Shown: positions 6,007 to 60,162, numbered from the stretch's first letter. The stretch is DNA of 64,000 nt from Tubiluchus corallicola (GCA_030141605.1 JAQGDQ010000165.1:310001-374000), one strand, 5' to 3'. The notes: a model not told the origin generated them from the sequence alone. Made by a program: numbers and translations.

Positions 6007-6034
6007 GTGCGGAGAAGAACAACATTGGCAGTTT

Positions 6035-6447
6035 AAGACTAGTTTATGTTAAACATGCTCTACCCAAGTTACACCAGGTTAACTCCACATACCTGGAACA
6101 TAAGACTAATTCTCTATTCACACTCTACCCAGATTACTCAGGTTAACTCTACATACCTCGAACACAAGACTAGTTTATGTTGCTCATACTCTACCCAAGT
6201 TACTCAGGTTAACTCTACATATCTGGAACATGAGATTAGTTTCTGTTACTCATGCTCTACCAAGATTATTCAGTTAACTCTACATACCTGGAACATAAGA
6301 CTAGTTTCTGTTACTCATACTTTACCCAGATTACTCAGGTTTATTCGACATACCTGGAACATAAGACTAATACTGCTACTCACACTCTACCCAGATTACT
6401 CAGGTTAACTCTACATACCTCGAACACAAGACTAGTTTATGTTACTC
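6035..6447. repeat. ~61-bp minisatellite, ~7 units, same family as the CYP intron-1 arrays
   Basis: Unit ctctacccagattactcaggttaactctacatacctggaacataagactagtttctgttactca. Confidence 0.9.
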
Positions 6448-11600: not shown

Positions 11601-14600
11601 TCTGTTCCTTCCACACCCTGCCTTCTGACATCGCCAGACCTTAAAAAGTCGAAAGTTAAAATCATTAAACTATAAAAGTACAGAGCAAATGATTAAAATG
11701 CCTAAAGACTAAGACAGTTCAACACCTGCAGCAAATAAAACTGATTAATGTTTGGTTTTATTTTGTAATATCGCTAACAAGTTCAGGCGTGTGACTGCAT
11801 GTTACTCGCAGGAAGTAGGATGGTTAGACGACACAGAACCCTGCATTGCTGTCTATAAGATTTATTACACCTAAAACTTAGTATGTACTTTTTTGAATTT
11901 CATAAAATAGCGCCAAGAAAGAAAAAATCAAAACTTTAAATAATATATCAAATATGTGCCAACACAGCGCGGGCCTAACAAATATGCACTACGTATTGGG
12001 CTTACACACTTGTATATGCATACAAAAAAGTAAAAGATCAAACAAGATGATACTAACAAGCCTCTGATATAATGTTGGCACGATATTTCTATTATCTATC
12101 TATACTCTTATATTAATATTCTTGGGATATATATATAACATTCAAGGCTACAGCTTCGACGAGGGCACCATTTGTGGCGATCTATACATCAAACGAAAGG
12201 TCTAGATCTAGTGTCGTCTCATTGGGGGCTTATTTTTCGAATGGGGCCCACCGCGAGGAACGGGGGGAAAAAAACCTCCAAAAATGGCCATTTTTTGCAC
12301 AAGTTATACGGCTGAGATGTAGAGAACGGGAATGGGCTGAGGGTGGTGCTGGGTATGGATAGATAGCCCGTTCAGCGATGGGTGTCATAGGCCTATTTAG
12401 AATTCGTGAGAGGGCCACGGGGTCCCGCAACGGGCATTTTCCCGGACCCAACTCGCGATTTTTTCGAAATTTTGGCCAAACAGCATGCGGCAAAAACGTT
12501 CTAGCGGCGAATGGTGGGACTCTCGGAAGGAAATATACGGTTCTTTAGAAAGAGGAAGAATGGGGCTATTCGATGATGTAAGATATATGTTAGGACAGGT
12601 TCACCAAGAGGAGTACCGACGAGTTAATTAGATGTGCTATTTTTCGCAATTTTCGCTTGGAAAAGTGCTGACGCAATGCCATTGTTGTGACGTCATCCAT
12701 TGTACTCTGCATATAACTTTAATTCAGTAAACCCTGCCTGCTGTACTCTGTCTATAACTTTAATTCAGTAAAAAGCTGCTACAGGGTTTGCGTTAGATAA
12801 ACAAACAGTAGGCTAGATGTTATGGGCTGTGTGTTTTATAAATGAGGACTGTGTAGGATGTTCGTGTGTTATTTATTATACGTGGTTTTTTATGCAAAAT
12901 CTTTTGCGGGGCCTTTGCTAGTCTATTATATTAATACTCTTGGTATATATATTTATATATGAGATTCGAGGCTACAGCTTCGACGATGGCACCATTTGAG
13001 GCGATCTATACATCAAACGAAAGGTCTCGATCTAGTGTCGTGCCACTGATGGTTTATTTTTCGAATCGGGCCCACTGGGAGGAACGGGGGGCGAAAAACC
13101 TCGAAAAATGGCCATTCTTCGGCCGTTTTTTACAAAAAATTGCAAAAGTTATACGGCTGAGATGTAGAGAACGGGAACGGGCCGAGGGTGGTGCTGGGTA
13201 TGGATAGATAGCTCGTTCAGCGATGGGTGTCACAGGCCTATTTAGAATTCGCGAGAGGACCACGGCGTCCCGTAACGGGCGTTTTCCCGGACCCAGCTCG
13301 CGATTTTTTCGAAATTTTGACCAAACAGCCTGCGGGAAAAACGTTCTAGCGGCGTCTGGTGGGACTCTCGGAAGGAGTTATACGGCTCATCAGAAAGAGG
13401 AAGAACGGGGCTATACGATGATGTGGGCTACATTTTAGGGCAGGTCCACCGAGAGGAGTAGCGACGAGTTAATTACATGTTCTATTTTCGGCAATTTTCA
13501 CTTAGAAAACTGCTGACGCAATGCCATTGTTGTGACGTCATCCATTATTGCTTATAGCTTTAATTCAGCAAAAAGCTGCTACAGGCAACAAACAGTAGGC
13601 AGGATGTTACGGGCTTTGTGTTATAAATGAGGACTTGGTAGGATGTTCGCGTATTATTGATTATACGTGTATTTATACGCAAAATTTTTTGCGGGGCCTT
13701 TGCTAGTCTATTATATTAATTTTGCTGGTATCTTAATATATATATTTATATATAAGATTCGAGGCTACAACTCTGACAAGGGCACCATTTGCGGCGATCT
13801 ATACATCAAACGAAAGGTCTCGATTTAGTGTCGTCTCATTGATGGTTTATTTTTCGAATGGGGCCCACCACGAGGAACGGGGGGCGAAAAACCTCCAAAA
13901 ATGGCCATTTTTCGGCCGTTTTTTGCAAAAGTTATACGGCTGAGATGTGGAGAACGGGAATGAGCCGTGGGTGGTGCTGGCTATGGATAGATAGCCCGTT
14001 CAGCGGTGGGTGTCGGTGTCATAGGCATATTTAGAATTCGCGAGAGGGCCACGGGGTCCCGCAACGGGCGTTTTCCCAGACCCAACTCGCGATTTTTTCG
14101 AAATTTTGATCAAACAGCCTGCGGGAAAAACGTTCTAGCGGCGCCTGGTGGGACTCTCGGAAGGAGATATACAGCTCATCAGAAAGAGAAAGAACAGGGC
14201 TACACGATGATGTGGGCTATATTTTACGGCAGGTCCACTGAGAGGAGTACTGGCGAGTTAATTACATGTTCTATTTTCGGCAATTTTCGCTTAGAAACTG
14301 CTGACGAAATGCATTTGTTGTGACGTCATCCATTGTACTCTGTCTATAATTTTAATTCAGTAAACGCTGCGACAGGCTTTGCGTTAGCTAAACAAACAGT
14401 AGGCATGATGTTAAGGGCTTTGTATTATAAATGAGGACTAGGAAGAATGTTCGCGTATTATTGATTACATGTGTGTTTATACGCAAAATCTTTTGCGGGG
14501 CCTTTGCTAGTCTATTATATTAATATTCTTGGTATGGGCTTAATATATTTATAAATAAATATATATATATATATATATATAAGATTCGAGGCTATAGCTT

Positions 14601-17600
14601 CGACGAGGGCACCATTTGTGGCGATCTATACATCAAACGAAAGGTCTCGATCTGTGTCGTCTCATTGGGGGTTTATTTTTGAAATCGGGCCCACCGCGAG
14701 AAAGGGGGGGGCGAAAAACCTCCAAAAATGACCTTTTTTCGGCCGTTTTTTGTAAAAGTTATACGGCTGAGATGCGGAGGACAGGAATGGGCCGAGGGTG
14801 GTGCTGGCTATGGATAGATAGCCCGTTCAGCGATGGGTGTAGTAGGCATATTTAGAATTCCCGAGAGGGCCACGGCGTCCCGCAATGGGAATTTGCCCGG
14901 ACCCAAGTCGCAATTTTTTCGAAATTTTGACCAAACAGCATGCGGAAAAAATGTTCGCCTGGTGAGACTCTCAGAAGGAGATATACGGCTCTTTAGAAAG
15001 AAGAACAGGGCTACACGATGATGTGGGCTATATGTTAGGACAGGTCCACCGAGAGGAGTACCGACGAGTTAATTAGATGTTCTATTTTCGGCAATTTTCG
15101 CTTAGAAAACTGCTGATGCATGCCATTGTTCTGACGTCATCCATTATTGCTTATAGCTTTAATTCAGCAAAAAGCTGCCTGCTGGCTTTGCGTCGAGAGA
15201 GAAAATAAAATAAGTTTGCATTAAGTATAATATTTTGAAAACCAGCAATAGTATTTTATTATTTGATTGAATATTAACCACTAAACGGTTAAAGCTAAGT
15301 TTTATTTGACATATGCAATGTGTATATTATTGTTATGAAGGAAACAAAAATAAAAATATTGTTTGAATTTATGTTTAAAATTAAATTTTAATAATCAGGT
15401 CAAGTTGATCATAGTGCAAAATCAGAATTTTCTTTCGGATAAATTTTGTGGCCCTGAAAAGGGCCAGTTGGTTATTTTAGATACTTTGTCACAGCTTTGG
15501 TGCGCTCACTGACAGCGTGCTAGGATAGTTCCCCAGAAAGGAGGAGGCGTAATGTGTTTGGATTCCTCAGTTGAAGAAATTGTAAACGCATCTACAATTG
15601 TTATGTATGGTTGTCCGTCGTCTGTTGTATGGTTGTTGTCTGTATCTGTTTCTGTTTCTGTGTTGTTGATGTATAATTTGCTGTTGTTCTAATTGTTGCT
15701 GTATGTGTGAAATTCGGTTAAGTTGTGTTTGTACGTGTGCCATGAATTGTGCTATCATTTGTTGCTGCTGTTGTTGTTGTGGTTGTGGATCTGGTTCAAG
15801 TTGTGGTTGTGGTTGTTGTTGTTGTCTATGTTCGTCGTCCGGTCTTCCTTGTATTGCCAAGCCTTCCAGTCTCTGTAACATAGAGATATTTTTGTTAAAA
15901 AAACAAAGATTTTTCAAACAACATGGAAAATTATTCTTTATTTCATTTAGATTCATTTTAAGCCCAACATGTTATTCATAAACTTTAGACTTAAATCAGC
16001 AATTTTAGATATTTCCCTTTGATAATAAATGCTAATGCGTAGGCATAGTGATTGTTAAAATATTTATTACCTTCGTAATATTGATTTTGCCTCCGAACAC
16101 CAAAGCCAAAGTTGCAAATACCAGGATTAAACGCAGCATCTTGACCTTTTTTGAGGTAGCGGTGAACCCGTGCCAATTACGACGCCAGAGTAATGTGGTG
16201 CACGGTTAATTCTGTTTTCTATCCGTCGAAGTGTATAAAACACGACGCTGCTAAGTGCCAAGTTATTAATTGAGTCATAGAATTTTGCAATGTTTTGACA
16301 ATGAATAATAATCGGCTAATTATAATAATAATAAAAGCAAAGGCCCCGCAAAAGATTTTGCGTATAAATACACGTGTAACTATTATTATGGGGAATATTA
16401 GTGAACTATTAGTAGACCTATAAAGTTATTATTTTCACAGCAATTATTAAATTAACATTAAAGGAGATTAAATTTTACTGCCATGTATCCACATTTGAGA
16501 TACCAGTGTCACCTTTGACTTCACATGTGTCTACATTTGACTTACCAAAAACGCTTAAGATTTCTTGAAAACTATTGTTAACACATTTGAACTACCTAAG
16601 TCTACATTTGAGTTAACACAGGTCTACATTTGACATGTAAAACCTATAGTAAGTTTACCTCAAGCTGAGTAAATGTCGCTAAAACATATGATATGAGAAA
16701 CATTCATTTGATAAAACATATGCAAATCCTACTTAACAATTGTATTTTCATACCTTTTACATTATATCATGTCATATCATACGATATTTTTACATTTTGT
16801 TACACCTTAATTCAACGTTTATTTTTTTCTCAGTATGTTCTGCAATATCACTCAAACGTAAGAAAGCCTCATAATGAACGCACGAAGTCAATATTTGCAA
16901 ACAGATTCTTCTTCCGCTATGAAAACAATATTTCGCAAATTAATTAGATAATATTTGCTAATAGTTCACAAAATTTAAGCCAAAGTGGTAATGTACAATT
17001 ATTACAATTATTTGTTATCGACATCACGGTATCTAATGGTTAACGTATAATCTATTATATCAATAATAATAATAATAATAATATTATAATATAAGAATAA
17101 TTATAATAATATAATTAATATAAATTAATATAAATAAATATAATATTAATATAAATTTATAAATATAATTTTTGACATTCGTATATACGGTATCGGAAAT
17201 GATTACTGCTGTCGCGCGACAGATGGCAGCACAATGTCATAATCAACAAGCAAAGAATAAATTACTGACACAAGATTGCAGAAACTCTTGAGATTTCATT
17301 AAAGACAGACATAACCTACTTCTTACAGAAAGTTTACAAATGAGAACTAATACATCTAATGCCCTTTATACTACATTATGTTACAAAGTGTTTCTAAATT
17401 TCATTGCATTTATCTAAACTAGGCCGAAATAAACAAATTTCTTTGGCACTTAAAAATACAATTAATGTACCCGATATTCAATACACCCAACAATTGCTAC
17501 AATAACTGACAAATGAATCCTTGCGTAAAAATACAAGCTGTTAATACTCTGCAGGGATTGGTGAACATATTATATATATTATTATTATTATAATTATATA

Positions 17601-20600
17601 TATATATACATTAATCAGTTGGTTTTTTTACATTGAATAAGATATTAAAAATGCTGTGACATGGCCTTCTAATGTCGTCTAACTCAAAATATGCGTGCTA
17701 ATGTGGACGAAAGGGAATTTGTCTCTTGGCAAATGATGCTTGGTGATGGTAAACATCCAAGAGAGGTGCCTGATCAGCCTAATGCTGTCAAAATACCAAG
17801 AGCGTGTCTGGCTGTATCAGACATTATTACAGAAATTTTTGGACATGAAATACAAAATTCTGAAATGCTAAAAGATAATGTGATTTTAACATCGAAAAAC
17901 GATGTTTGCTTACGAATTAACGAAAACGTATTAACCAGACTTCATGGCATTGCACGCACTTACTTTAGTGCTGATACTATTGCCGAGAATGATCCGGAAC
18001 AGGCAGAAACATATCCAACAGACTATATCAACAAACTGACACCATCAGGTCTACCGCCTCATAAGCTGACGCTAAAGGTGGGTGCAATTGTGATGTTATT
18101 GAGAAATATAGATATACGGCAAGGTTTATGTAATTGTTGCAGATTAATCGTTAGAGAGATGCACGAAAATTTTTTAATTTCTGACAATATTGAAAATTCT
18201 GGCAGAGGTAAGAGGGTGTTTATTCCTCGGGTAACTCTGTCACTGTCAGACACCCAGTTGCCATTTAAAATGACTCGGCGTCAGTTCCCTTGCCGTTTGA
18301 GCTTTGCATTGGCTATTAACAAGAGTCAAGGTCAAACTTTTCAAAAGGTTGGTATCTACTTGCCGAGGCCTGTTTTTACTCATGGACAAATGTATGTAGC
18401 CGTGAGTAGAGTCAGACGCTTTGCAGATCTCAAAATAATGATCGAGGAAACTGCGCAACAAGGTAACTTGTTGAAAAATAGAGATGATGTATTCACGCAA
18501 AACGTAGTATATACAGAAGTACTGTAAAATGCAAAGAAATGCTTACAAACATGTACTAATGGAGCCAAAAGATTGGTATGTACAGTAGTAAAGAGTTTAG
18601 AGCTACATGTTGTTGCCAATCAAGTAAGACAGTTGGTTAGCATTAAAATGTTAGCAAACGATGTGCAAAATGGCGTGATAGAAGTAAAAGGCAAGAAACA
18701 GCTAATTGTGCATTCAGGGGTAGAAATAGCAAGTTTTACAAAAAAACTGATGCAAAACGAATCAGAAAATAAGTCGTCAAATGTTACATTAATGATACTG
18801 CCGTCTTTCTTTAGATATTTTGATTAATAAGAGTGGCCAAAAAGTAGACACTTAAAGATTTGAAACAGCTACATTAAAATTTTGTTCATTTTGAGCTATT
18901 TCGTCCCCGCCCCGAGTGGCTCTGAAAAAAGTGGTTTCTTTATTAAAAGATACTATAATTGTGCATTCATGTATGAGCGTGTATTATTGACCATTCCCTG
19001 GCAAAAAAGCAATTGTTTGAAAAAGAGCACTTCATATTTTGCAACCCTATTCAAATTTCTGTATATTCTTTAATAGTAATATTCTCCATCTTTCTGTCTG
19101 ATGGAGTACATATGTGGCAAGAAAAAATAAATAAATTCAGCAAAAAAATGCTGTGCCACCTCTCCCTGTCAGAAATAAGTGCTGATCTTGTAACAGCTGT
19201 TGCTGTGTTTCATTTTTCTTTAACAATGTCTCTGCAAGTAAAGTGGGCTTCTCGTGAGAAGATACAGGTGACTGGATCTGTTTCTGGTAGGGTGGGTTGA
19301 TTGGCGAGAAGAAAATAAAGCAATTGACGACCAGCACTCTCTGTCAGACAGGTAAGCACAAATCTTGTACCGCTTCAAATCGGGAAACTTTACACCCTCC
19401 CAAAATTTCCGAAACCCTTTTTTTCAATATTTTCCAAATCCACCAAAAATGTGACACACAAACCTGAAAATTTAAAAAACCAAATTAAAACAGAATTCTT
19501 CTGACTTTTCAAATGATGAACAGACGAAGATCAACATAAATATAACATTTTTAAATGAGAATTTTTGAATGTTTGATGTTTTGCTAGCTTGTACACTCGT
19601 TTTTCTTGTTGCTCATGGTCATTGAAAAGCATTTCCAAATTGTACACGTTATTCAAGTGAGTTTCTCATGGGAAATCCGGCAAATTGGATCTCCTCTCTG
19701 ATAGGGTTTGTTTTTTTCGGTGTGAAGAAGAACGTAACTGCTGTGTCACCATGCTCTGTCAGAGGTAAATGCTAATACCTGCATTTTGAGAAGCATTATA
19801 CTCGCCCAGCGTTTCTGAGTGTACGTGTTTCTAAAGGGCAAAATGTTTTATTATTGCGAAACCAGAAACAGATAGGCATAAAAATGTACAGTATATAGCT
19901 TCTCATGGAAAGGGCTAGGGGACATGATCTATCTCTGGTAGGGCATGTTGTTGGCGTAAAAGAATTATCAGCAGTTGCATGCCAGCACTCTCTGTCCAAG
20001 GTATGCGCAAATTCAGCATCGCTTCACATCAAGAAACTTGTTACTCTCCAAACATTTTAAAAAATGTGTGTTTTGGAAAAAAAATGCAAGTTTACAAAAA
20101 ATCAAATAAACTGGTTTAAAAATTTAAGTCAAATTAAACTAGAATCCAGACCGTTCAAATAATTGATAGACGATTTTTGAACCTATGGTATTCTGTCAAT
20201 CTGATTTTTAACAACTTGAAGTTTTAGGTCTTAATTATAGTTAATTTAAAAAATATGTCTTCTATTGAAGTGAGTTTCTTATGCGAAGGCCTGGATATGT
20301 CTCTGATAGGGTGTGTGTTTTTTTGGCAAGAAGAAAATTAAAGTAACTGCCGTGGCCACTGCTCTTTGTCAGAGGTAAGCGCAAATCCATGACCGCTTTA
20401 TATTGAGAAGCTTTACAGCCTCCCGGAATTTCTGCACAATTTAAGAAAAGAAAAAACTGTTTGGTCACGAAACAGTTGCCAAATGGATTTAAAAGTTGTA
20501 ACAAATGCAAACTAATGCAAATAATGCATTTTGCTAGCTTGATCACTAAGCTTTTGTTGTGGATCATAGTCTACAAAATCTGTTAAAAACTATGCCTGCT

Positions 20601-23600
20601 GCTGAAGTTAGCTTCTCGTGGGAAGGTCCCGGAAATGGATCTATCTCTGATGGGGTGCGTACGATGGCGAGCAGAATAGTGAAAAAAAATATCACTAGCA
20701 GTTGCTAGCCAGCACTCTTTGTCAGAATGTAAGCGCAAGTCCCGGTACCGCTTCACATCTAGAAACTTCACATCCTTCAAAAATCTATAAAAACATGTGT
20801 TTTGTTAAAAAATATTTTGAATGCCCACAATAATGCAACAAATATGCCTGACAATCAAAAAAATCAGATTAAAGTCGACTCATGAATGTTCAAATAACGG
20901 GACAGATGAAAATTAACGTAATACATTGCATTTTTGCCAACTTCTTCACTGAACTGCTGGTGTTGCTCACAGTCAAATGAAAATCATGTCTAAAACATAC
21001 ATACCATTGAAGTGAGTTTCTCGTGGGAAGGCTTGGAAAACTGGGATCGCATTCTGATGGGGTGTGTTAATTGGCGGGTAGAAAAATTTTGCATTGCTCT
21101 GTGCCACACTTCTCTGTCAGAGGTAAGCACTAATCCTGCACCACTTCACGCTGAGAAGCTTTACAGCCTCCCAGAACGTGTGTCTTTTTAAAAAAAGGAA
21201 AAAACTGCATGGTCGCAAAACAGGTGGAAATAGATTTAAAAGATGTGTATCAAAATGCAAACTAATGCGAGAAATGCATTTTCCTAGCTTGATCACTAAG
21301 CTTTTGTTGTGCACCATAGTCTACAAAGTCTGTCAAAAACTATGCCTGCTGCTGACGTTAGCTTCTTGTGAGAAGATCCTGGAAATGGATCTATCTCTGA
21401 TAGGGTTCATTAGATGGCGGAAAGAATAGTAAAAAAAAAATAAATGGATGGAGCAATGCCAGTCACCACTCTCAGTCAGAAGTATGCGCTAATCCTGCAC
21501 CGCTTCACGTTGAGAAGATTCACACTCTCTCAAAATTTCTAAATACACGTTTTTAAAAAAAAAATTACAAGGTCAAAAAACATGCTACAAATAGAAATAA
21601 AAGGTACAAAAGCCAAACAAAAATAGAGTCCTAATTGTTGATGTGATGGTCAGGCAAAACTAATTGTAGCTATTTGTAGCCTGGTCATTGAGCTGTTGGT
21701 GTTGTTCATGATCAGTTGAAAAGTACAGCTAAAAATGCCCCTGCTGCGAAAGTGAACTTCTCATAGGGAGGCATGGAGAAACTTGTAATTGGGTGTGTGG
21801 CGAGAAGAATATTTCTTGGAATATTTCCATGTATCCAATTGCTTGCCACCGCTCTCTGTCAGAGTCAAGCGCAAATCCTGTACCACTTCACCATGAGTGG
21901 CTTCATGCCTACCCGGAATTTCTAAAAAAACGTATTTAAAAAAACAAAAATAAAACCATTCGACAAATTGGCTGGAAAGGTTTAAACAGTCAAATGAAAA
22001 ATGGTGACGTAACTTTTCAAATGATGGGCATATAAAAAGGAATTGAACAATTGCATCTTGCCCGACTGATCTTTCTGCTCTTTGAATTGTTAATAGGCAG
22101 TAAATAGCCTCTCATGGGAATGTCTAGGAACTGGATCTGTCTCTGATTTGAGAAAAACGGTAAGTGAGCAGGAGTCAGACGGGGTAAACCTGCCTAGATC
22201 TAAATGCATATTTTGTTGACTGCATTTAGATCTAGCACATTGCAAGCCGTGACAAAAGGTGAGCACTCCCTCTGGCATTATAAGCACTGTTTCAGAAAAT
22301 AACGTTTCGAACAATAATTAATGGAGTTCTTATAGGAAAGCTTTTTCAGAAAGAGGAGGAACTGGACTACATGATGACGAGGGTAACTCAGAAACACTAC
22401 GACCACAGGTGACAAGATTAGAAATAATTGTACGTTTCACTTCAGGTTCCTTACTTACAAAGCTGCATGGTGTGGCTGATATGGTGTGAGTGGTGTGGAA
22501 AGTGTGGATAATGCGGTGGGGTGCTATGGTGTGGGTGGTGTAGTGTAGGTTGTGTGTTCATTTATGCGCAAAATTCTTTTGCGGGGTTTCGCTAGTGTAT
22601 ATATTAATATTCTTGGTATGTTATATATATATATATATATATATAAGAGTCAAGGCTACTCGGAAGGAGATATGGGGCTCTTCAGAAAGAGGAAGAACGG
22701 GGCTACACAGTGATGTGGGCTATGTTTTAGGGCAGGTCCACCGAGAGGAGTACTGGCGAGTTAATTACATGTTCTATTTTCGGCAATTTCGCTTGGAAAA
22801 CTGCTGACGCATGCCATTGTTCTGACGTCATCCATTGTACTCTGCCCATAATCTTATAGCTTTAATTCAGCAAAAAGCTGCTACAGGCTTTGCGTTAGGT
22901 AAGTAGGCAGGATGTTCGCGTATTTTTGAGCACTATGTAGGATGTTCGCGTATTATTGATTACATGTGTACTTATATGCAAAATCTTTTGCGGGGCCTTT
23001 GCTAGTAAATGAATATTTCTATATGAACATTACATAACTTTATTAACCGTTTTCTTCTACCTATTAATTTTTTATTTAACTACTAAAATTATTAGGGATA
23101 ACTAACCATACTGTAGCAGCTAGAGACTAGTTTCTCCTACCCTGACTATACCCACATTACTCAGGTTTAGTCTACGTGTCTGGAATACGAGACTAGCTTC
23201 TTTTAGCTAGACTCTACCCAGATTATTCAGTTAACTCTACATACCAGGAACATGACTAGTTTCTGTTACTCATACTCTACCCAGATTACTCAGGTTAACT
23301 CTACATACCTGGAACATAAGACTAGTTTCTGTTACTCATGCTCTACACAGATTACTCAGGTTAACTCTACATACCTGGAACATAAGCCTAGTTTCTGTTA
23401 CTCAGAATCTACCCAGATTACTCGGGTTAACTCTACATACCTGGAACATAAGACTAGTTTCTGTTACTCATGCTCTACCCAGATTACTCAGGTTAACTCT
23501 ACATACCTGGAACATAAGACTAGTTTCTGTTACTCATGCTCTACCCAGATTACTCAGGTTAACTCTACATACCTGGAACATAAGACTAGTTTATGTTACT

Positions 23601-24547: not shown

Positions 24548-26251
24548 CGTTGCACGTAACGAATTCAACCTTTCGAAGTTTAATTTATAAAAAAGCGTAG
24601 GTTATTTTCGTATACTAGAAATTCTACTTTTCGTGCTGCACGTTAGCGCCGCCTAACATTCAAAACGAAAGCACGTTCAGAAATATGTGTTTTTTCAACG
24701 ACCACGACGCCTTTCAAAGGGGAGCATCTTGAAAATCAAGTTAGCTTATTTTATAGCTGCCTTCCCCGGGAACAACTTGGCGAATTTTTTTAGCAGTACG
24801 TTGTCTAATTAATGAGTAATTAACTTTTTTGTATCTCACGTGAAACGCCATGGAGCTGCACTTGTGCCTCTCCCGGTGAAAACATTGAACTAGCGAAGCT
24901 CAGGCTGATGATGCAACAGAGGGTACACGCAGCCTGTTGTGATACTGTCGTTCACGCCTGGGCGAAAAATAAAGCTGGTATTACTATATTACAGCATTTG
25001 ACCTTGGTTTGGATAGGTAGTCAGCTGATAGAAGCGGTTTTCATCAAAAGCTATATTTTACTACCGTAGAAAGTTATAGGTCTACTACAGCATATTGTGA
25101 AAATTCTTGTGGCATTAATTGAAAACGTCGTCAGCAATGCAAGCTGCAAAAGTCTGGGCCTCGGTAACAAGTTTTTTTCTTGTAAAACAAGTCCGATATA
25201 GTAACTTCATTCTGCTAGAAGAATTAATGAATTTGTAAACTGAGAAACTCACTGAAGCATAACTTTAATATACTATAAAATATTAGCTGTACACTTATTG
25301 ATTAAACATATATGAACATTTTTAACTTTGTCGTGTTTCAGTTATTTGAATCAGCAAGTTATTTCTGTTTCTCTCATCATTCGAAATATCAACATCAACA
25401 CCTTTGCACAAAATCACCGTGTAGTTACACGCTTTTATCTCAAGAGACTTTTGTTTATTTATTATGATACATTTTATCAAAACTGTATATTTTAAATCTA
25501 AACCATCGTAACAGCTGTACATAAGCCGGCTGGTCGCCATTTTCTATTAATTATGGGAAATTTATAAATATTTTAAAATTAAAATAAAAAATAATAATAT
25601 GCAAAAACAAATATTAGTGTTGTCACAAAATTATAAGTTGTTACCTTTAAGGTTACAGTGTGATTATTGTGATACCTGCATGTACTATACCCAATAACAA
25701 CAGATATTTTTTTTATTTATGACATAATAATGGAAGGTGTACATATGAATACCTATGAATACGAAGTTATTATGATACTGAAGCAGGCGCCAAGTTGCAC
25801 GTCTTTAACCGACCTGAGTGTCAGGCCAGACCAACAGATTTACATGCACTTCATCCCAGGCTAAACATAAATTTAAGGCTAAAATAAAATCACCTACAGT
25901 AGCTTATTAAATGACAAGTTCATATCATCAAATTAAGTTGAAATATTAGCTGAATTTACCAGGCTCATTCATATCAATGACATGAATAAAATAACATGAA
26001 ATTTATTTATAAACATGTAGTGCAAGTTTTAGCCAGGAACAAGGCAGAACGAGTAAATAAATTACAACGCCAAATTCAGAGCGTAAACCAAATACAGAAT
26101 CATGCACATAAGTTTTAATTAACAATTATAATTGCTTCAATAATAACAAAACAAAAGTATTGACCTTCTGTTGCTGATGACCTCTACTGACGTCATTGCT
26201 TATTTTAAGCTTGCAAGTATGATCGAAAATATGATTTTATTTTGTTTTATC

Positions 26252-26667
26252 CAGGGGCGGAACTAGGGGGAGCGAGGGGGGAGGACGCCCCCTGTCAAAA
26301 TTTGTGCCCCCCTGCAAAATCGGACAAATAATTTTTTTTGCAGTGAAAATTGCAGTTCACATGTAATCATTTTCAATATGAATTAGAATTGGGTAAAAAA
26401 ATGTTTGGTAGGGTCAGTGTATTATTTTCTTAAAACTTGTGCGTGATAAATTTCTGTAAATAACAATTTAGTTAGAGGCACATTAATAACGTTAGGTTAA
26501 CTGTGAGTTAATTTTCTCGTTAGTGCTCTGTCCGCTACGCCGTCCTACACACATGCTAATTACAGGCCTGCATGCAGTATGAAAGGGGTTTAATATTGGC
26601 TTAACAATTATTTAACCACTTCAGATACCTCGCCCCCCCCTGCTTGCCACATCTAGTTCCGGCCCTG
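26252..26667. mobile_element. hAT-type MITE inserted just after the CYP-B stop codon
   Basis: TIRs CAGGGGCGGAACTAG / CTAGTTCCGGCCCTG and 8-bp TSD GTTTTATC (26244-26251, 26668-26675). Absent from CYP-A. Confidence 0.88.
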
Positions 26668-26670
26668 GTT

Positions 26671-29600
26671 TTATCGCAGAGTTACTTTCATTTTATAAGC
26701 CTTTGGCGAACTAGTAAAGCCAACCACAGGCTCCAAGTCCAGTTTGGTGTCGCCATCTGGCAACTGTACATTGAAATGTTGAAGTATGCTAGTGAAGTAC
26801 AGGAAAATCTCTATACGTGCCAACGATTCTCCTAAACAAACGCGACGACCTATAAAACCAGCAAACAAAACTGGAATTACGTTCAAATAATTGGCTAAAA
26901 TTATGAAATCCTGTTTGCAGCAGGCAGTTACGCTGTTGTACAACACGCCCATTTAATAGCTACAAAACATTTAAATATTACAGGCCTACATTTCTGGAAC
27001 ATTTATACTGAAAAATGGGCTTGTTACATAGGTAAGACATTACAGAAGTTATAATTACAACATTAATATGAATAGCACGCAATGTCTATAGTGAATACTG
27101 CAAGTAGAATTACAGCATGCTAAACTTGTAATTAACCGAACTGCAATATAATTATACCTACATAGGACAGGCCTAAAGACTATACACAGCATAAAATTAT
27201 ATAGAATGAAATCTATTAGCTGCTGCATTTCTTTGTTTTTACATACCTACTGAAAACGGCATTAAGTTTTCGTTTTTAACAAATTGCCCATTTTGATCCA
27301 AATGGCGTTCTGGTCGAAATTCATACGGTTCTGGAAACTGTTCAGAATCGAGCAGTACTCCAGTAAGGTTGAGAACAATTGGTGTGGAAGCTGGTATCGT
27401 GTATCCATTAAATACACACGTCTCAGAAGTAAGATGCGGTAATGCTATTGGAGCGATGTTACCTGTGCAATAAGATAAAGACTGATATTACAGGTTTGGT
27501 CACAAAGTCACTGGAATTAATTACAGTTTTAAGAAATTTAGGTGTAAAGACTTTATTACAGTTGATTTAAAGAAGTGTGAAACGTGAAACAGTTCATGCA
27601 TTTTTGTAAAGGAACTAGAATCATGTTTTTTTTACCAAACTTCCACGTAAGACATTTTTATAGTTATTTATATTCCGTTTAGAATGCAGACATTACAGCT
27701 TTTACCATTTTAACAATGTGTCACTCTCAATACTGATTATACAAGCTGCCCTAGAGTAGCAAGTTTATCAACAGCAGTTATTGAATTTGCATTTAGTAAA
27801 TTTGTCACAAATGGCAATGTCTTCAAAGTATTTGAGTAACGCATAATGTAATTACGTATCCAAACTATTTCAGAAATTGAAGAAAGCACTTCCTTTAACT
27901 TAACATTTTTGGCATTTTTATGAAACTTTTTTATTATCATAAAGTAGTTTCTGATTCAGCAAAATTTGAGGATTTTGTAACAACAATTATAACAACGATG
28001 ATAATGGTGGACAGGTGTGGTTGACGATGATGACAATGACGATGACGACGACGATGGTGATGATGATGGCAATGGGAATGGTAAATGGTGATAAAGGCGA
28101 TCTACTCTGCAGTTTGATTGTCGAATTTTACTGATGGGGCAATCAATTCTTGATAAAATCGAATACCACTACAAAAATTTACACCTGTCCATCCTTTTCT
28201 CTCTCTCCATTGTCAAAATCTGAACACCTGAAAAAGCGTAGAACGTTGGCAATGGTTTACCAAGACAGGAAATATTCCTAAAATATCAAAATTTTGGAAT
28301 TGAAATTCGCTGACTTTCGAACACTGAAGAAAAACTGGAATTTTGAATTTGGTAAATTAAGGAATTTATGCTACCTTGGTTCACACTTTTTGCAAAATTT
28401 ATCCCATTAAAAGGTTTGACTGCTACAAACTACCTAGTCTTTGCGTTTCTGCTATACACGCCTCTACATAGGGCATATTGGAGCGGTCGCTGCAACACGG
28501 CATGTGGCTTCTTCCGACGACATCCTCAATCTCTTGCTGGGCCCTCTTCATCACTTCCGGATGCTTCATCATGAAGAGAAATGCCCAGCGTAAAGTTGTG
28601 GCCATTGTTTCAGTTCCAGTGGAAAATAAGTCGACGACGACTGCACTCAACTCTAATTCTAGTAAATTCATAATTGCGTTGGTGATTGAGGCAACGATCA
28701 CAGTGAATATTATATATATATTTAAGTATTCTAAAGAGTATTTGAATACTATAAATTGCTCATAACATTAACTTGATCAATCAAAATAAGGAATTACTTG
28801 TATTGCAATAAATATCACAATATTATTATCAGCCATCAAAACTATTTAAAAAACTAACCGTTGAATATTGTATCTTTAACACCCTGGGCCTGCAGCTGTT
28901 GCATGTGGCTTAAGTAGGCGTCTATAAAATCCCTGGTATTTTCAGGATCATAAGAGTCGATGTGTTCATTAGTGACTTTCACTATAAAGTCAAACAGCAG
29001 AGATTGATTCTTCACAAAACTGTCATAGCTGAAACGACAAAAAGAAACAAATGAGAAGCTTACGACGAAAAGTTATGCCATGACTTGCTGTTTTACCACC
29101 ACAGACCAGTGTTGGTGGTAAAACAATAAGGTGTAACAGAAATTGTTGTTTCGCCACGACTACCAACTACATTCCAACTACTGAGCAGTCAATGACGGCA
29201 CAACCCACAAATGATTAAATTTTGATACTAACCTTAAAAAACAGACCGGATTTGAATCAGGGACCTTCTGCTTACAAAGTAGATGTCTTACACCACTCGG
29301 CCACATCTCCCACCGGTCAAAGCAGTCCAAAGTTGGCCAACCTAATTCAACATTTCTAATGTTAGATCGTTCATATTAGAGTTAGAATAACTCCAATGTG
29401 AGCGTTCTAACATTGGAAATGTTGAACTCGGTTGGCCAACGGATGAACTTTGGACCCTTGTCCTTTGGAAATAACAGTCTAAGGCATCTTTTTTGTAAGC
29501 AGAAGATCCCTGGTTCAAATCCAAGTTGTATTCTAACTATTTCACGTTTCAGTCTTCAAAGAAGCAGTCAATAGAAGGAATGCAATAAGAGCTAAACAAA

Positions 29601-31877
29601 GTTTCCTTTACAAATTTTGTACAAGGGAAAAAGTTAATTCACACCAATTCCCCTGCATAAAATAACTTTAGCTGATTATTAACATCAGAGTAATAAGGCC
29701 AAATTTATATTCGTCCTAAATATTTTTCTCGGGCTGCCTTGCAGAATGTTTCTCTTAAGTATTCAGGTTAAATTAAACGTATTGGAAAGAGATATCAGTT
29801 TTCAAATCAAAACTAACACAAGTCACCTCTGTCGAATAACTGGGAGAAATCGTGTCCATGGGACGATCTCTATGACACCTAGAAGCAAAGTATTAGAGGA
29901 GGCCTCGCTAATACATTTCATTAGCAGCTTGAAATCTTCATTGGTGTAATCGTAAGTCCTGCCAAGTACTATGGAACAAATTACATTTGAAACACTATTA
30001 TTCATCAAAATGTGCACGTCAAAAGGTTGTCCATCTTTCTGCTTGAGTTCGTTCAGAAAACGAGCAATTTCTTCTTTCACCTTTCCTTCCATACTAACTT
30101 TTCCCATACCGAATTCTCTGAGTGCAGTTAAAGCGAATTTTCTCTGCTCCTTCCATACCCTGCCTTCTGACATCACCAGACCTTAAAAAGTCGAAAGTTA
30201 AAATTATTAAACTATAAAAGTGCAGAGCAAATGTTTAAAATGCCTAAAGACTAAGACGGTTTAACACCTGTAGTAAATAAAAACTGAATAATGTTTGGTT
30301 TTATTTTGTAATATTGCTAACAAGTTCAGGCATGTGACTGCATGTTACTCGCAGGAAGTAGGATGGTTAGATGGCACAGAACCCTGCATTGCTGTCTATA
30401 AGATTTACTACACTCAAAACTTACTTATGTACTTTATTTTCAATTTCATAAAATAGCGTCGATAAAGGAAAAGTGAAAACTTTAAATAATATATAAAATA
30501 TGTGCCAATACAGTGTGGGCCTAACAAGTATGCACTACGTATCGGGCTTACACACTTGTACATGTATACAAAAAAAGTCAAAGATCGAACAAGATGATAC
30601 AAACAAGCCTCTGATATAATGTGGGCACGATATATCTATTATAAATGATATGAACATAGCTTCTTTTAGCTAGACTCTACCCAGATTACTCAGGTTAATT
30701 CTACATACCTGGAACATAAGACTAATTTCTGTTACTCATGCTCTACCCAGATTACTCAGGATAACTCTACATACCTGGAACATAAGACTAATTTCTGTTA
30801 GTCATACTCTATCCAGATTACTCAGGTTAACTCTACATACCTGGAACATAAGACTAATTCTGCTACTCACACTCTACCCAAATTACACAGGTCAACTCTA
30901 CATACTTCGAACACAAGACTAGTTTATGTTACTCGTACTCTAACCAAGTTACTCAGGTTAACTCTACATATCTGGAACATGAGATTAGTTTCTGCTACTC
31001 ATACTCTACCCAAGTTACTCAGGTTAACTCTACATATCTGGAACATAAAGACTAGTTTCTGCTATTCATGCTCTACACAGATTATTCGGTTAACTCTACA
31101 CACCTCGAACACAAGACTAGTTTCTGTTACTCATACTCTACCCAGATTACTCAGGTTAACTCTACATACCTGGAACATAAGACTAATTTCTATTACTCAT
31201 GCTCTACCCAGATTACTCAGGTTAACTCTACATACCAGGAACATTAATTCTGTTACTCATACTCTACCCAAGTTACTCAGGTTAACTCTACATACCTGGA
31301 ACATAAGACTGGTTTCTGTTACTCATACTCTACCCAAATTACTCAGGTTAACTCTACCTACCTCGAACACAAGACTAGTTTATGTCACTCATACTCTACC
31401 CAAGTTATTCAGGTTAACTCTACATATCTGGAACATGAGATTAGTTTCTGCTACTCATGCTCTACCCAGATTATTCGGTAAACTCTACATACCTGGAACA
31501 TGCTTAACGTGTCCGAATCCAAGTTTTTGTAAAAGGTCGTCAGTGAAGAAGGTTCGGGGTCGCCCCGAAAAAATCTCTCCTTGTTTTAGAAAAGCTTTGC
31601 GTGCTAGCTCGGCATCATTAATTACTATGTGCAGTTTACTTCCTAAGTAGACACTAAATATTTTTCCGTAGGTCTTAGACAGCTCTGTGAAAAATTCTCC
31701 TATATGTTTTCCCGCTGACAGTATGGAACCAATGTAAGGCCATCCAAGAGGACCAGGTGGTATATTCGAAGGTCTCTTGAGGTACTGCCACAATTTTAGC
31801 GCAAGAAGCACGCACACGCTAGTTGCTACACATTTCAAAATTGTACATCCAAATAAACACGTGTGTTCGGCAGACAT
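26671..31877 (-). CDS. Cytochrome P450, clan 2 (CYP2-like), copy B. Exons 31877-31493, 30181-29827, 29028-28859, 28658-28434, 27462-27247, 26849-26671
   Basis: Close paralog of CYP-A with the same exon structure and an intact heme motif. The I-helix reads FSTGTETM. Confidence 0.9.
29243..29310 (-). mobile_element. tRNA-derived sequence (SINE head or tRNA pseudogene, Thr-TGT-like)
   Basis: Minus strand ggagatgTGGCCGAGTGGtgtaag...tttgtaa...GATTCAAATCC shows A-box and B-box-like motifs, but the acceptor stem pairs poorly. Confidence 0.55.
30660..31502. repeat. ~61-bp minisatellite (~14 units) at the start of CYP-B intron 1
   Basis: Same unit and same position as in CYP-A. Confidence 0.92.
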
Positions 31878-32079
31878 CTTTGCACGCAACGAATTCAACT
31901 TTTTGAAGTTTAATTTATAAAAAAAGCGTAGCTTATTTTCATATAATGGAAATTCTGCTTCTCGTGCTGTATTACTAGCGGCCGTATATAGTACAGTGAA
32001 TGGCAGATTGACTAAATGCATTTGTGAACCTTGGTTGGCCTTGACAAAGTTGTTTGCTATATGATTCACGCAGGGGCTA

Positions 32080-33930
32080 TTTAGTGTGGCACAGCTCGGC
32101 TTAAGGGTATGATATTAGGTTAAAGTGCCACCTATCATTGACTTCTGCAACTAACTTTATTTTGCTTTATTTTTACATAAAAAAAATGTTGGGTTCAGCT
32201 TTGACAATATCTTGAGGCTACTTGTAATTCAAATTTAAACTGAGTAAAAGCAACAACAAGTGAACTAAGATTAAAAATAATTTATTCTATTGGCTTTACT
32301 ATAAAATACAGCTAATTTTAGTTAGGTAAAATCCACAATCATCAATACTATTCTTGTTTCTAGTTAAAGAAATCTTCTGTAGCAATTGCAATTGGTCATG
32401 CAAAGAATGCTAGAGTCCAGGTTTCAGTAAGATTAAGCAGTTGCAATTTTCATGCCAGTCCTGTGTATAGGTACTATGTTCCTGTTCCACATTTAACTAA
32501 AAGTGAGCAAAACTATGATCCAGTCTCTTCTTTCACTTATTTGTATAAGATCTCGAATAACCCCGGATCAATAGCTAGCTGACTTGTGATCTGCAACTTT
32601 TTTTTAAGTGGAACTTTTTCATTCCAGGAATTTTCTGCAACTTTTCTATTCTGCAACTCTTTAAATTCTGCAACTCTTTAAGTTCTGCAACTCTTTAAAT
32701 TCTGCAACTCTTTTCAATTCTGCAACTCTTTTCAATTCTGCAACTCTTTTAATTCTGGAACTCTTCTATTCTGCAACTCTTTTCAATTCTGCAACTCTTT
32801 TAATTCTGGAACTCTTCTATTCTGCAACTCTTTTAATCCTGGAACTCTTTTATTCTGGAACTCTTCTATTCTGCAACTCTTTTAATTCTGGAACTCTTTT
32901 AATTCCTGGAACTCTTTTAATTCTGCAACTCTTTTAATTCTGGAACTCTTTCATTCCAAGAATTTTCTGCAACTCTTTTAATTCCAGGAAATTTCTGCAA
33001 CTCTTTTAATTCCAGGAAATTTCTGCAACTCTTTTAATTCCAGGAAATTTCTGCAACTCTTTTAATTCCAGGAAATTTCTGCAACTCTTTTAATTCCAGG
33101 AAATTTCTGCAACTCTTTTAATTCCTGGAAATTACTGGAACTCTTTTGATCTTGGATTTTCCTGGAACTCTCAGCAACTCTTTTAAATCTTGGATTTTCC
33201 TGGAACTCTCAGCAACTCTTTTAAATCTTGGATTTTCCTGGAACTCTTTTTGTCTCTGCAACTGCTTCAATCCTGAAACCCTTTTCTAGCTTCTCTTTTG
33301 GTTTCTAGAACCTAGTGTTTCTGAAACTCTTTTCATTTCTGGAACTCTTTTCTAGGTTCTAGATTCCTGACACATCCTAGCTAGTTTTGAAAGCTAGCTT
33401 TATCTAGTAAGTTAAAACTTACTTCTCATCCTGCTTCTTTTCCATGTTTAGATGAATCTTCAGTTGCTGTAGCTCTTTATCACTTTGAAAATGTTCGGAT
33501 GTGTGTGGTCAATGGCCTGGCCCTCCCTTTATATAGCCGCCTGAGCGTCGGCGTCGCTAAGTTACCATGGATTGTGCATTGTAACCGAGGGGTGGGCTGT
33601 TCATTACACTTTGTTACTTTCAGTCTTCTAATTATAATTTCATCAATTTGTTTTGCTCTTTTTTTAACAGCGCATATGTTTGTCTACATTTAATCTAATT
33701 TATCAGCTTATGTTTGATCCTTTTTGTTTTTATTTTCTTGTTTTCCAAACCGGGAATTCACCGGGTTCTAAAGTTTCATCGCCCTGTGTTTATCTTTCGG
33801 TCAGCATCTGGTGTGCTCGCCGAATAGCGAAGATGTGCATAACATAAGAGCATCCATAATGGCTGCGTCCATAGTGCGTGTAAACAATATTAAAATTCCG
33901 ATGATTATATTTTTTTTAGAGAATATTACA
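32080..33930 (-). repeat. 3' LTR, with an internal ~20-bp tandem array at ~32590-33360
   Basis: Direct repeat of 41760-43544. Preceded on the minus strand by the polypurine tract AAGAAAGGGGGAAT (33931-33944). Confidence 0.93.
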
Positions 33931-34383
33931 ATTCCCCCTTTCTTAAAACTGCACCTGCCCTCAGGTGCTCTGTCTCCTGTCAGCATCAGGTATGCTTACC
34001 AAACTATTGTTGAGTTTTGTTGACTGCTCCTTTAAAATTTTTTTTTTTTGTTTCTTTGCCATCCTGATATTGAAATCCAATACAGCTTATATACTTACTA
34101 AACTGAATACAGCTTTATTTACTTGTAAAATATAACGGAATTTTTATACATCCATACATATTCTTGATAGCACCATTCTAGTAAACAATATAAGTAAATA
34201 AGCAAGTATATAATACTGGAACAACCCGTTGTAGATATGCTGATATATTCCTTCAAATGATATATATATATATATAAAAGATATATAATTTTTAATCTAA
34301 TTTATCTAGGAAATATTGGAATGTATATATGAACGTAGGTTGAACGTAGGTATGAATATATATTGGAACGTAGCTGCATGGCC

Positions 34384-35332
34384 TTAGTCCTCTTCACTGG
34401 AGAAGTCATCCGAGGAGACAGCTAGATCTATAGAAATATCTGTATTTGTGGGTGGCATTTGTTGTTGACCTTCAGTGTTCTTCTTTTCAGCCAACTTTTC
34501 CACCTCCTTTCTCACCAACTTGCTTACAGTTGTTTCCATTCTCTCATACATACGATCAACTGCCTCATTCCACTCTTTTTCTTTCTTCTCCGTAATTTCT
34601 TTACTCTTCTTCTCTAAAACTGCTTCCCACTTATTTAGAGCTGCTACCCTGCATCGCTCCTCTAGTTCCATGATCTCATTTTTTAATTTTAATATCTTTT
34701 CCCTCATGACTATCTGATCTAGCTCTGTGCATGGAGGTGGAGCTTTTCGTGGCACCTTGTCCGACTGCGGTGCAAGGAATACTGGCAGATTTTTCGACTG
34801 TGTTTCCTTGTATGGTTTATAGTGTGGTAAGGCAGGTCTAGTTGGTTTTCTAACTTGGTTGGTCAGGTTATGGGTGCTGTTCTGCCTCACAATACTTCTG
34901 CTTCTGAAATTTCTGAAGGTTGAGTTGCTTGTTGGTGGCTTGAAGGCCCTGTTCTTCGGATTACTTAACTCAGGCCTTACTGTAACTGGGGAAGTTCCTC
35001 TTTTTGTTTTGGGTGATTTTGCTGTTTTGATTTTGCTTTCCTGTTCCGACCTCTGATTATGACTCTTTAAATCTCGCTCTTTCTTCCCGTCTTTTCTTTC
35101 CAGACTGCTGTCACTAGTTGTACTCCATTTGGAGCGGCTCAATCTTGGTGATCCTTCTGGTGACAGAGGTCTTTTATCAACAGAGGTTGCCTGAGGTGGC
35201 CTTTCAAGACGCTTAGTTGGCCAAGTAGCGGGAATTTGTCTACTCCCATGACATGCCTTCCAGTGTTTTGACATATAGGCAGTCCTTTGAGACCTATAGT
35301 CACAGTTTGTACAACAGTACACTGTCTCCCTC
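34384..35332 (-). CDS. Accessory ORF3 of the LTR element: C2H2-like zinc finger, basic low-complexity region, predicted coiled coil and acidic tail; probably spliced to LTR mini-exon 43059-43037
   Basis: CTNC-x12-HWKACH motif and no hydrophobic transmembrane segment. Splice acceptor ttattttgtctattttag|G lies at 35333/35332. Confidence 0.75.
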
Positions 35333-35703
35333 CTAAAATAGACAAAATAACAGTGTTTTAATAACTTCATTTTCCACGGTTACGTTTTTTTTTTACTAAG
35401 GTACCTTTGCCTATTTCTTTTTTTTCTACATTGTAATTGTAATAAGTGACACATTTCTAAGTGACATGTGATTATCAAGTGTCACTAACTCATACTTTTC
35501 TATATTTTTTTTTCTTATGCTGGATGCAGTTTAATGCCTTGCCCAGGGCAACTAATCCAGATAACAGCTTTTAACAGAAAATTAATGCAGCAGCAGAGGA
35601 AAGGAAGAAAATATGGTTAAGTTATAGGTCAAGTCTGTTTGGAGGTTTCCTCATCCGCTGTCCTCTTCCTAGCATTGTGTCAGAAGTGCTACTGGACGGT
35701 TCA

Positions 35704-39870: not shown

Positions 39871-39902
39871 GACCGGGACACTGGCCCCATGCCCGGTCTC
39901 CT

Positions 39903-41668: not shown

Positions 41669-41738
41669 TTTACCAATTTTATTACAGCTTGCCGTTCTTA
41701 CTCAGTTTGAATCACAATGCCTCAAAACAAAATTCAAA

Positions 41739-41756
41739 ATCCCGGACGAGCCCCCA
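41739..41756 (-). promoter_or_regulatory. Primer-binding site complementary to tRNA-Pro
   Basis: TGGGGGCTCGTCCGGGAT lies 3 nt inside the 5' LTR boundary and is the well-known 18-nt tRNA-Pro PBS. Confidence 0.92.
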
Positions 41757-41759
41757 AAA

Positions 41760-44682: not shown

Positions 44683-60162
<15,480 letters not shown>

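Follow-up and report, generated by a model that had tools for sequence, protein, structure and literature searches.

A tandem array of fold-back units is found inside a Helitron1 rolling-circle transposon of Tubiluchus corallicola, in a 64,000-nucleotide stretch of DNA (GCA_030141605.1 JAQGDQ010000165.1:310001-374000), here termed the window. The array is situated between the end of a decayed helicase gene (18527) and the transposon terminus (22595). It comprises eight full units of 143-167 nt (u1-u8), one copy reduced to the inner hairpin (u0) and the 5′ half of another (u9). The array is a real, Helitron-linked hairpin cassette that is probably under selection, and the units are, on the whole, likely to represent a selected RNA element of the plus strand. 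How they might act is a more tentative matter. The best reading, judged from sequence features, is a cassette that resembles a primary microRNA (pri-miRNA) and is carried on the helicase transcript. An original prediction from the same DNA described nine to ten hairpins directly downstream of a Helitron helicase. Both the count and the linkage hold, and the upstream open reading frame is the C-terminus of a Pif1 helicase.

A full unit displays an outer helix of 19 × 21 nt, a loop, a 4 bp GGAU/AUCC helix, a second loop and an 11 bp inner helix; above the latter are a loop, a UGGC/GCCA helix and an A-rich apical loop. The array period is 224-406 nt, the spacers can be aligned to one another, and loops and spacers of different units are mutually homologous. 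The units are confined to the element: an nhmmer search of the window gave 10 matches, all in the array, and a covariance model gave nine real matches together with two AT-rich ones (E 0.097 and 0.63). The alternative of an ordinary dispersed MITE (miniature inverted-repeat transposable element) thus does not apply within the window. Units outside the window are seen in sequencing-run contigs alone.

Tandem amplification is old. The units are 34% apart, whereas the eight longest listed X2 contigs differ from the window by ∼2% (48 of 2655 letters), which places the array-bearing copy near the family majority, or near its own sample, as X2 may be the sample of the window itself. Some X2 contigs are joined at 19335/19737 and 22038/20992, with whole units skipped or repeated. 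These joints hint that the number of units varies among copies, although mis-assignment of paralogues could produce them as well. A duplication of ∼745 bp, of units 4+5 and 6+7, had also been proposed. Segments 19958-20844 and 20682-21593 are 71% identical overall, and u5 and u7 with their upstream spacers form the sole close pair (18% different); u6 clusters with u2 and not with u4 (support 95) in a tree built on full periods, not on a hairpin-only alignment.

The complementary blocks named in the prediction are all present. Standard pairs fill 254 of the 288 cells (88.2%) of a 37-pair structure, and displacing the partners by 1-3 columns leaves 44-49%; as these sequences also served to derive the structure, the pairing score is biased in its favour. 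G-U pairs do work on the plus strand, as had been claimed. Two such pairs in the inner stem are invariant in 8/8 units, and the inner hairpin is more stable on the plus strand in 9/9 units, partly as an effect of composition. The probability of the inner helix exceeds 0.5 in 5/8 units. At the top of the inner stem two registers fit equally, the first four pairs filling 30/32 cells in either. A small palindrome makes up the outer 5′ strand, whose local hairpin pairs in 37/40 cells.

Stems and spacers were compared as the prediction had suggested, and the outcome supports selection. Pairwise difference among units is 0.20 in the stems, 0.30 in the 3′ linker, 0.40 in the spacers and 0.52 in the other loops, based on six of the eight units; u1 and u3 were excluded because their spacers are mostly deleted. 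The spacers, strongly diverged as noted originally, are homologous and not unrelated, and the stems have diverged half as much. Because the choice of conserved stems biases the contrast, whole units, loops included, were compared too. They differ by 0.34 and the spacers by 0.42, and invariant columns number 53/155 and 36/178, respectively (p 0.003). Star-tree neutral decay at the spacer rate leaves 70% pairing, and the 88% observed was reached in 0/600 runs; in a neutral simulation at the stems' own divergence it was reached in 11 and 80 of 1500 runs (two transition shares).

A strand asymmetry is seen as well. At 15 A-T pairs, the change A>G, which retains a G-U pair on the plus strand, is found at eight and T>C at none (p 0.002). 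Unpaired columns display no strand bias (A>G 12/26, T>C 12/24). In addition, an X5 contig with an 87% identical helicase has retained the u3 3′ arm and the u4 5′ arm (8/59 and 9/55 differences), and 219 other letters replace the 223 nt spacer between them; the contig was matched at 80% likeness, and paralogue swapping is possible. Contig depth was not read as copy number, and only covered parts of X5 were used. Damage private to the window copy at 19675, 20328 and 21797 is restored in the majority of contigs. At the last of these positions, X2 and X4 contigs carry five extra bases, which bring the u8 arm to the usual 23 nt.

Other observations weigh against a selected, base-paired RNA. Covariation had been set beforehand as a check and was negative: two pairs changed on both sides, compared with 3.1 in shuffled alignments, and 460/500 shuffles were as high, in a test of low power on eight paralogues. 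Conservation of sequence equals that of structure: column identity is 0.72 in the 3′ strand, most of which is unpaired, and 0.73-0.78 in the stems, and the claim that structure is conserved more than sequence is not borne out. The stem/spacer contrast is inflated because the stems were picked for conservation, and in the youngest pair, u5/u7, spacer (0.18) and stems (0.14) differ about equally. In G-C pairs, C>T and the pair-breaking change G>A are equally frequent (10 sites each), so that pair-keeping transitions taken together (21/31, p 0.11) are not significant. Nor do whole units fold stably as the long hairpins that had been described (z -2.7 to +0.9).

The reading tentatively preferred here is that of a selected, plus-strand, pri-miRNA-like cassette. 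The units would be copies of one RNA hairpin module, likely kept by selection in the 3′ part of the helicase transcript. The plus strand would be transcribed and folded as RNA, and the host microRNA machinery (Drosha, then Dicer) would cut the units as it does a polycistronic pri-miRNA. The cut might fall ∼10-13 nt above the GGAU/AUCC base and release RNAs of 22-26 nt, with a base-side half common to the units and a loop-side half that differs. The outcome could be either small RNAs that act on host genes or a cleavage that restrains the transposase message.

This cassette is favoured because of its near-fixed arm lengths with a free loop, its pattern of bulges and pairing, and a CNNC motif. 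The 5′ strand of the inner stem is 32 nt in 6/9 units and the 3′ strand 34 nt in 7/9, with a loop of 24-43 nt. Arms are 23 and 21 nt in most units, the base-side halves being nearly constant and the loop-side halves variable. The inner 5′ strand is unpaired at positions 5-8 and paired at 9-19 and 29-32, and the first U in the putative 5′ arm never varies. In 8/9 units a CNNC, at its canonical distance, begins 16-19 nt past the putative cut; chance would give ∼9% per three-position window, and the eight occurrences are one inherited motif, not eight independent trials. A UG is found 9-11 nt before the putative 5′ end in 8/9 units, among them u8 with its decayed arm, the canonical basal UG being at -14. 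The apical UGU/GUG is displayed by 1/9 units. The stem is at the lower edge of the ∼33-39 nt expected under the terminal loop of a pri-miRNA. In mammalian pri-miRNAs the optimum is 36 ± 3 nt (33-39), and bulges are over-represented 5-9 nt from the base and scarce at positions 16-21 and 28-32 (PMC5340965).

Much weighs against the pri-miRNA-like reading as well. The consensus pairs 19-21 of 32-34 nt in the inner stem, below the pairing of at least 82% used for mammalian pri-miRNAs, and the unit loops are longer than the 8-16 nt enriched there (PMC5340965). The inner hairpins are weak, at -14 to -31 kcal/mol per 100 nt, with z < -2 in 2/9. The arm duplex is 13-17 bp and attains at least 16 bp, the number of paired bases between arms taken as a miRNA criterion, in 4/9 units. 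GGAU pairs locally in a side hairpin in 6/9 units. The cut site cannot be fixed because both internal loops are large and asymmetric, and the outer 19 × 21 nt stem and the conserved 3′ linker are left without explanation. Sites complementary to the arms within the window are 11-13 nt chance matches alone. Run X6, guessed to be RNA, gave three short records, all on the terminal 80 nt, which say nothing on expression either way. Because pairing and stability fall below these thresholds and the outer helix is unexplained, the cassette is likened to a miRNA cluster and not classed as one. Weaker, more asymmetric Drosha substrates have been described in mRNAs (PMC10954719).

It is possible, though somewhat unlikely, that the units remain uncut and that, as RNA elements near the 3′ end of the transposase message, they bind proteins multivalently, with a role in germ-line transport, in stability or as decoys of double-stranded-RNA-binding defence proteins. 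This explanation shares the evidence for selection and the plus-strand G-U pairs, and it tolerates weak folding. The unpaired 3′ linker has kept its sequence (0.72), as a binding site would, and the side hairpin that folds in 6/9 units has a GNRA-type loop (GUGA in u1; GAAA in u5 and u7). There is a precedent in the I element, which requires an RNA stem-loop for oocyte transport (PMC6719617). On the other hand, no known motif matches, covariation is missing here too, and protein binding does not require arm lengths close to those of a small-RNA duplex.

The units might also be an ordinary internal tandem array, in which rolling-circle or unequal recombination multiplied a single palindromic, MITE-like module whose copies then decayed without function. 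This is rather unlikely. Tandem arrays are often present in Helitrons (PMC12001565, PMC4067079), and repeats behind Helitron helicases are common, since a direct repeat is found in 29/50 other helicase loci with at least 1.5 kb downstream (at least six matches in seven of them), some of which may fall outside elements. The absence of covariation and the similar divergence of spacer and stems in u5/u7 are as expected from decay, and A-rich spacers and loops may mutate faster. Neutral decay does not, however, readily account for whole units, loops included, being better conserved than spacers, for the 0/15 vs 8/15 strand asymmetry that is absent from unpaired columns, or for fixed arm lengths and a diverged relative that retains the arms with its spacer replaced.

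A splice-coupled function is improbable. In this case, the base of each inner stem would present a 5′ splice site that binds U1 against polyadenylation or defines non-coding exons, and cutting at the donor would deprive the outer helices of their 3′ partners, so that the 5′ half switches to local hairpins. The original prediction noted AG/GTAAG at this position in several units; GT is present in 7/8 full units and AGGTAWG in four, but the exact AGGTAAG in just 3/8. An acceptor-like pyrimidine tract with TAG is upstream of u2, u5, u7 and u8, and CTAAT precedes the acceptor-like tract by ∼20-25 nt in three units, both by the general consensus. AATAAA or ATTAAA is found within the loops of u0, u1, u4 and u7. 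Each 5′ strand with a partner behind the site has a local alternative, the outer strand as its own hairpin and GGAU in the side hairpin. Against these signs, u8 and u0 have lost the site, u2, u5 and u7 have a weak one, the acceptor AG is missing in u4 and u6, there is no common reading frame, and the entire strand is conserved, not the donor alone.

Even less probable is a role as single-stranded DNA hairpins in the strand displaced during rolling-circle transposition, as pause, priming or second-strand signals. The plus strand, with TC at its start and CTAG at its end, is the transferred one, and the strand bias cannot separate RNA from single-stranded DNA because in DNA, too, G-T is the mildest of the mismatches. 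No unit is present in the non-autonomous copies that share these ends, so the array is not needed in cis, and with DNA parameters the inner hairpin has just -2.6 to -14.3 kcal/mol. Excision is single-stranded (PMC13565253). The prediction had offered a transposon-encoded non-coding RNA array or single-stranded DNA signals; the Helitron linkage and the support for selection speak for the general idea, and the unit-less copies weaken its DNA version. Double-stranded DNA enhancer modules are very improbable: the word RTGRGAA in the 5′ part of the units, which we take to resemble a Su(H)/CSL site, is on the plus strand in u1, u2, u5, u6, u7 and u9, but it matches 41 times in the whole window and accounts for 7 of ∼155 nt, not for the nested complementarity, the strand bias or the fixed arm lengths.

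Some candidates were rejected outright. An array of coding alternative exons does not fit, as frames shift between blocks and most units contain stops. Hammerhead, HDV-like, twister, SECIS, H/ACA, spliced-leader, tRNA/SINE and heat-shock-element candidates were dropped by eye on their consensus features, and Rfam was unsupportive. With Rfam 15, whose families include ribozymes, snRNA, snoRNA, SECIS and miRNA, there was no match near the gathering score in 18500-22700 or 20580-21200 (E up to 10), in keeping with the original failure to recognize the fold as a known RNA family.

The array-bearing element belongs to Helitron1. Canonical Helitron1 elements have 5′TC and 3′CTRR termini, a 16-20 nt palindrome ∼11 bp from the end and A/T insertion (PMC4067079). 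The insertion described here is 10.9 kb, and comparison with the P450 paralogue places its 5′ TC behind an A and its 3′ CTAG in front of a T. A short hairpin is ∼11 nt upstream of the 3′ end. Insertion was at an A/T site and without target duplication, the paralogous P450 intron at 30636 representing the empty site. The insertion is a chain of head-to-tail copies with a common 7 bp hairpin and CTAG end at 12921, 13706, 14510, 22595 and 23005. The terminus of the array-bearing copy recurs in five other plus- and minus-strand copies and one truncated inverted copy. Contigs that switch to unlike sequence behind 22596 number 29, 13 and 4 in three DNA runs, as expected of a terminus that sits at many sites. 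Non-autonomous copies with the same ends are found four times inside the insertion and once alone, at 54403-54767.

The helicase remnant is 45-49% identical to Rep+helicase proteins. RepHel proteins combine an HUH Rep with Pif1; the helicase C-terminus alone is left here, and the closest relatives bear the Helitron Rep domain PF14214. A 99-codon open frame (18528-18827, plus strand) is in the same frame directly behind the helicase stop. On the minus strand of the same Helitron copy, at 15424-16139, two exons of matching phase (16139-16071 and 15872-15567), separated by a GT-AG intron, form a candidate gene. The predicted protein is small and rich in Q and P, and its start is hydrophobic and resembles a signal peptide. 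A Pfam search with the open reading frame of the second exon was without match. About 100 nt past the end of this candidate gene, the Rfam model Histone3 identifies a histone 3′ stem-loop (37.8 bits), and a purine-rich box comes next. An inverted 45 nt piece of the family's 3′ end, with the final AG missing, is inside the element at 16334-16379 (minus strand). A GT-rich, microsatellite-like stretch follows the inverted repeat listed in Table 1.

The window is eukaryotic, with duplicated P450 genes on the minus strand, whose closest named relatives are from Priapulus caudatus (45-50% identity), and a Gypsy element. The P450 relatives point to a probable priapulid-like host. The tandem CYP2-like P450 duplicates (7819-12095/23080-24638 and 25360-31969) are 85-93% identical, and a 66 bp satellite is found in the same intron of each; a third satellite block is at 6034-6447. 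The Gypsy-type long terminal repeat element (32079-43546) has 1.85 kb repeats that are 95.6% identical, gag- and pol-like open reading frames, and a further open reading frame of 328 amino acids without Pfam match.

Table 1. Features of the Helitron1 insertion and its array, in window coordinates (u, unit)
Feature	Position	Strand	Evidence or remarks
Composite Helitron1 insertion, head-to-tail concatemer	12095..23005	+	In P450 intron; flanks join directly in paralogous intron at 30636
Array-bearing Helitron copy (fourth in chain), internally deleted/rearranged	14511..22595	+	Begins right after previous CTAG; hairpin and CTAG end
RepHel Pif1 helicase C-terminus, 284 codons, 5′ part lost	17673..18527	+	Pif1_2B_dom E 2e-16; upstream in-frame stops
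u0, inner hairpin only	19088..19186	+	Covariance model 33.5 bits, model positions 40-125; inner fold z -3.1
u1, full unit	19243..19393	+	Covariance-model match
u2, full unit, 3′ linker partly deleted	19657..19799	+	Covariance-model match
u3, full unit	19894..20040	+	Covariance-model match
u4, full unit, side hairpin deleted	20270..20416	+	Covariance-model match
u5, full unit, best inner-hairpin fold among full units	20607..20771	+	Inner minimum free energy -33.7, z -2.6
u6, full unit	21012..21164	+	Covariance-model match
u7, full unit	21357..21523	+	Covariance-model match
u8, full unit, decayed 5′ arm	21752..21906	+	X2 and X4 contigs carry 5 more bases at 21797
u9, 5′ half of unit	22102..22147	+	nhmmer E 1.8e-7
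17 bp inverted repeat, near-perfect, unrelated to units	22191..22237	.	∼350 nt before terminus; DNA fold -13.4 kcal/mol
Helitron 3′ terminus: 7 bp hairpin 22567-22583 and CTAG 22592-22595	22567..22595	+	

Relatives of the units were sought at 109 helicase-anchored loci (one viral, the best 80 of 590 confirmed from 7/64 parts of the metagenome set, and 28 from prokaryote genome bins). The nhmmer search over the 109 loci found no unit (best E 1.7). A covariance model over 100 of them gave a single match (E 0.076), on the opposite strand within a helicase gene, which was taken as chance. As these relatives are just 31-53% identical, the null result says little on close kin. The exact two-gap pattern of the inner hairpin had no match in viral contigs and none in metagenome contigs. 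Ten of the 28 prokaryote-bin loci (L088-L093, L098-L100 and L102) are from one bin labelled Dehalococcoidia, with contigs of up to 540 kb; these are likely mis-binned eukaryotic contigs. Fanzor guide systems are present in some Helitrons (PMC13565253). A Fanzor/OMEGA guide-RNA array would combine a TnpB/Fanzor gene with guide segments unrelated to one another. No open frame of more than 134 codons other than the helicase was found in 14500-22600 of this internally deleted copy, short frames being outside the Pfam scan, and the loops and spacers of the units are mutually homologous.

Compared with canonical Helitron1 elements, the termini, the terminal hairpin, the A/T site without duplication, the head-to-tail copies and the RepHel helicase are the same. 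What differs is that most of the interval from the helicase stop to the terminus is taken up by a 3 kb array of ten fold-back units that look selected, and that the array-bearing copy is without the Rep half. Internal tandem arrays and minisatellites borne by Helitrons are known (PMC12001565). The 166 bp minisatellites of Heli2Xen and the central repeats of DINE-1/HINE (PMC12001565, PMC4067079) resemble the present array as tandem units of variable copy structure in a rolling-circle element. The units described here are nevertheless old (34-40% diverged), what is conserved in them lies mainly in complementary arms, and the non-autonomous copies of the window lack units, whereas in those elements the repeats make up most of such copies.

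With animal polycistronic pri-miRNAs the units share the ∼33 nt stem, fixed arms, a free loop, a bulge near the base, the downstream CNNC and the UG at the stem base. They differ in lower pairing and stability, large asymmetric loops, a long apical loop and the extra outer 19 × 21 nt helix, and are nearer to the non-miRNA Drosha substrates, which are weaker than pri-miRNAs (PMC10954719). The I-element localization signal is likewise a transposon-borne structured RNA that recruits host RNA-binding proteins, but it is a single short hairpin in a retrotransposon open reading frame, and there is no sequence match (PMC6719617). If the units bind proteins instead of being cut, they would represent a new multivalent RNA signal.

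Adenovirus VA RNA, a polymerase III transcript that ties up host RNA-binding proteins, is of similar size and has a terminal stem, a central domain and an apical stem. It has no sequence match to the units, and transcription by polymerase III is disfavoured here because runs of at least four T are found inside u2, u4 and u6.

The usual view of an animal DNA transposon is that of a transposase and its end signals. A 3 kb non-coding cassette that is kept by an element lineage and dispensed with by its non-autonomous partners points to an accessory RNA function. Literature searches found no Helitron with a cassette of hairpins or miRNAs; one could be described in supplements or Repbase, which were outside their scope. 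At its boldest, and this is doubtful, the proposal is that a rolling-circle transposon of an animal carries a polycistronic small-RNA cassette of its own. The ten hairpins, constant at the base and diversified in the upper arms, would be cut from the transposase transcript and would tune host silencing or germ-line genes, and splicing at the donor in each stem base would possibly switch the cassette off. Rice CACTA transposons carry miR820, which targets OsDRM2, and the same 2019 review names just three cases of anti-silencing encoded by transposable elements, all in plants (PMC6719617). If small RNAs are made, the array would allow counter-defence or self-control by a transposon to be tested directly in an animal. 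The likeness is that of a DNA transposon with a hairpin RNA that possibly benefits the transposon itself; the rice system is a plant one with a single miRNA gene and a known target, whereas here ten putative hairpins are read from the sequence of an animal Helitron. A small-RNA-encoding Helitron would then represent the animal, multi-copy counterpart of rice miR820.

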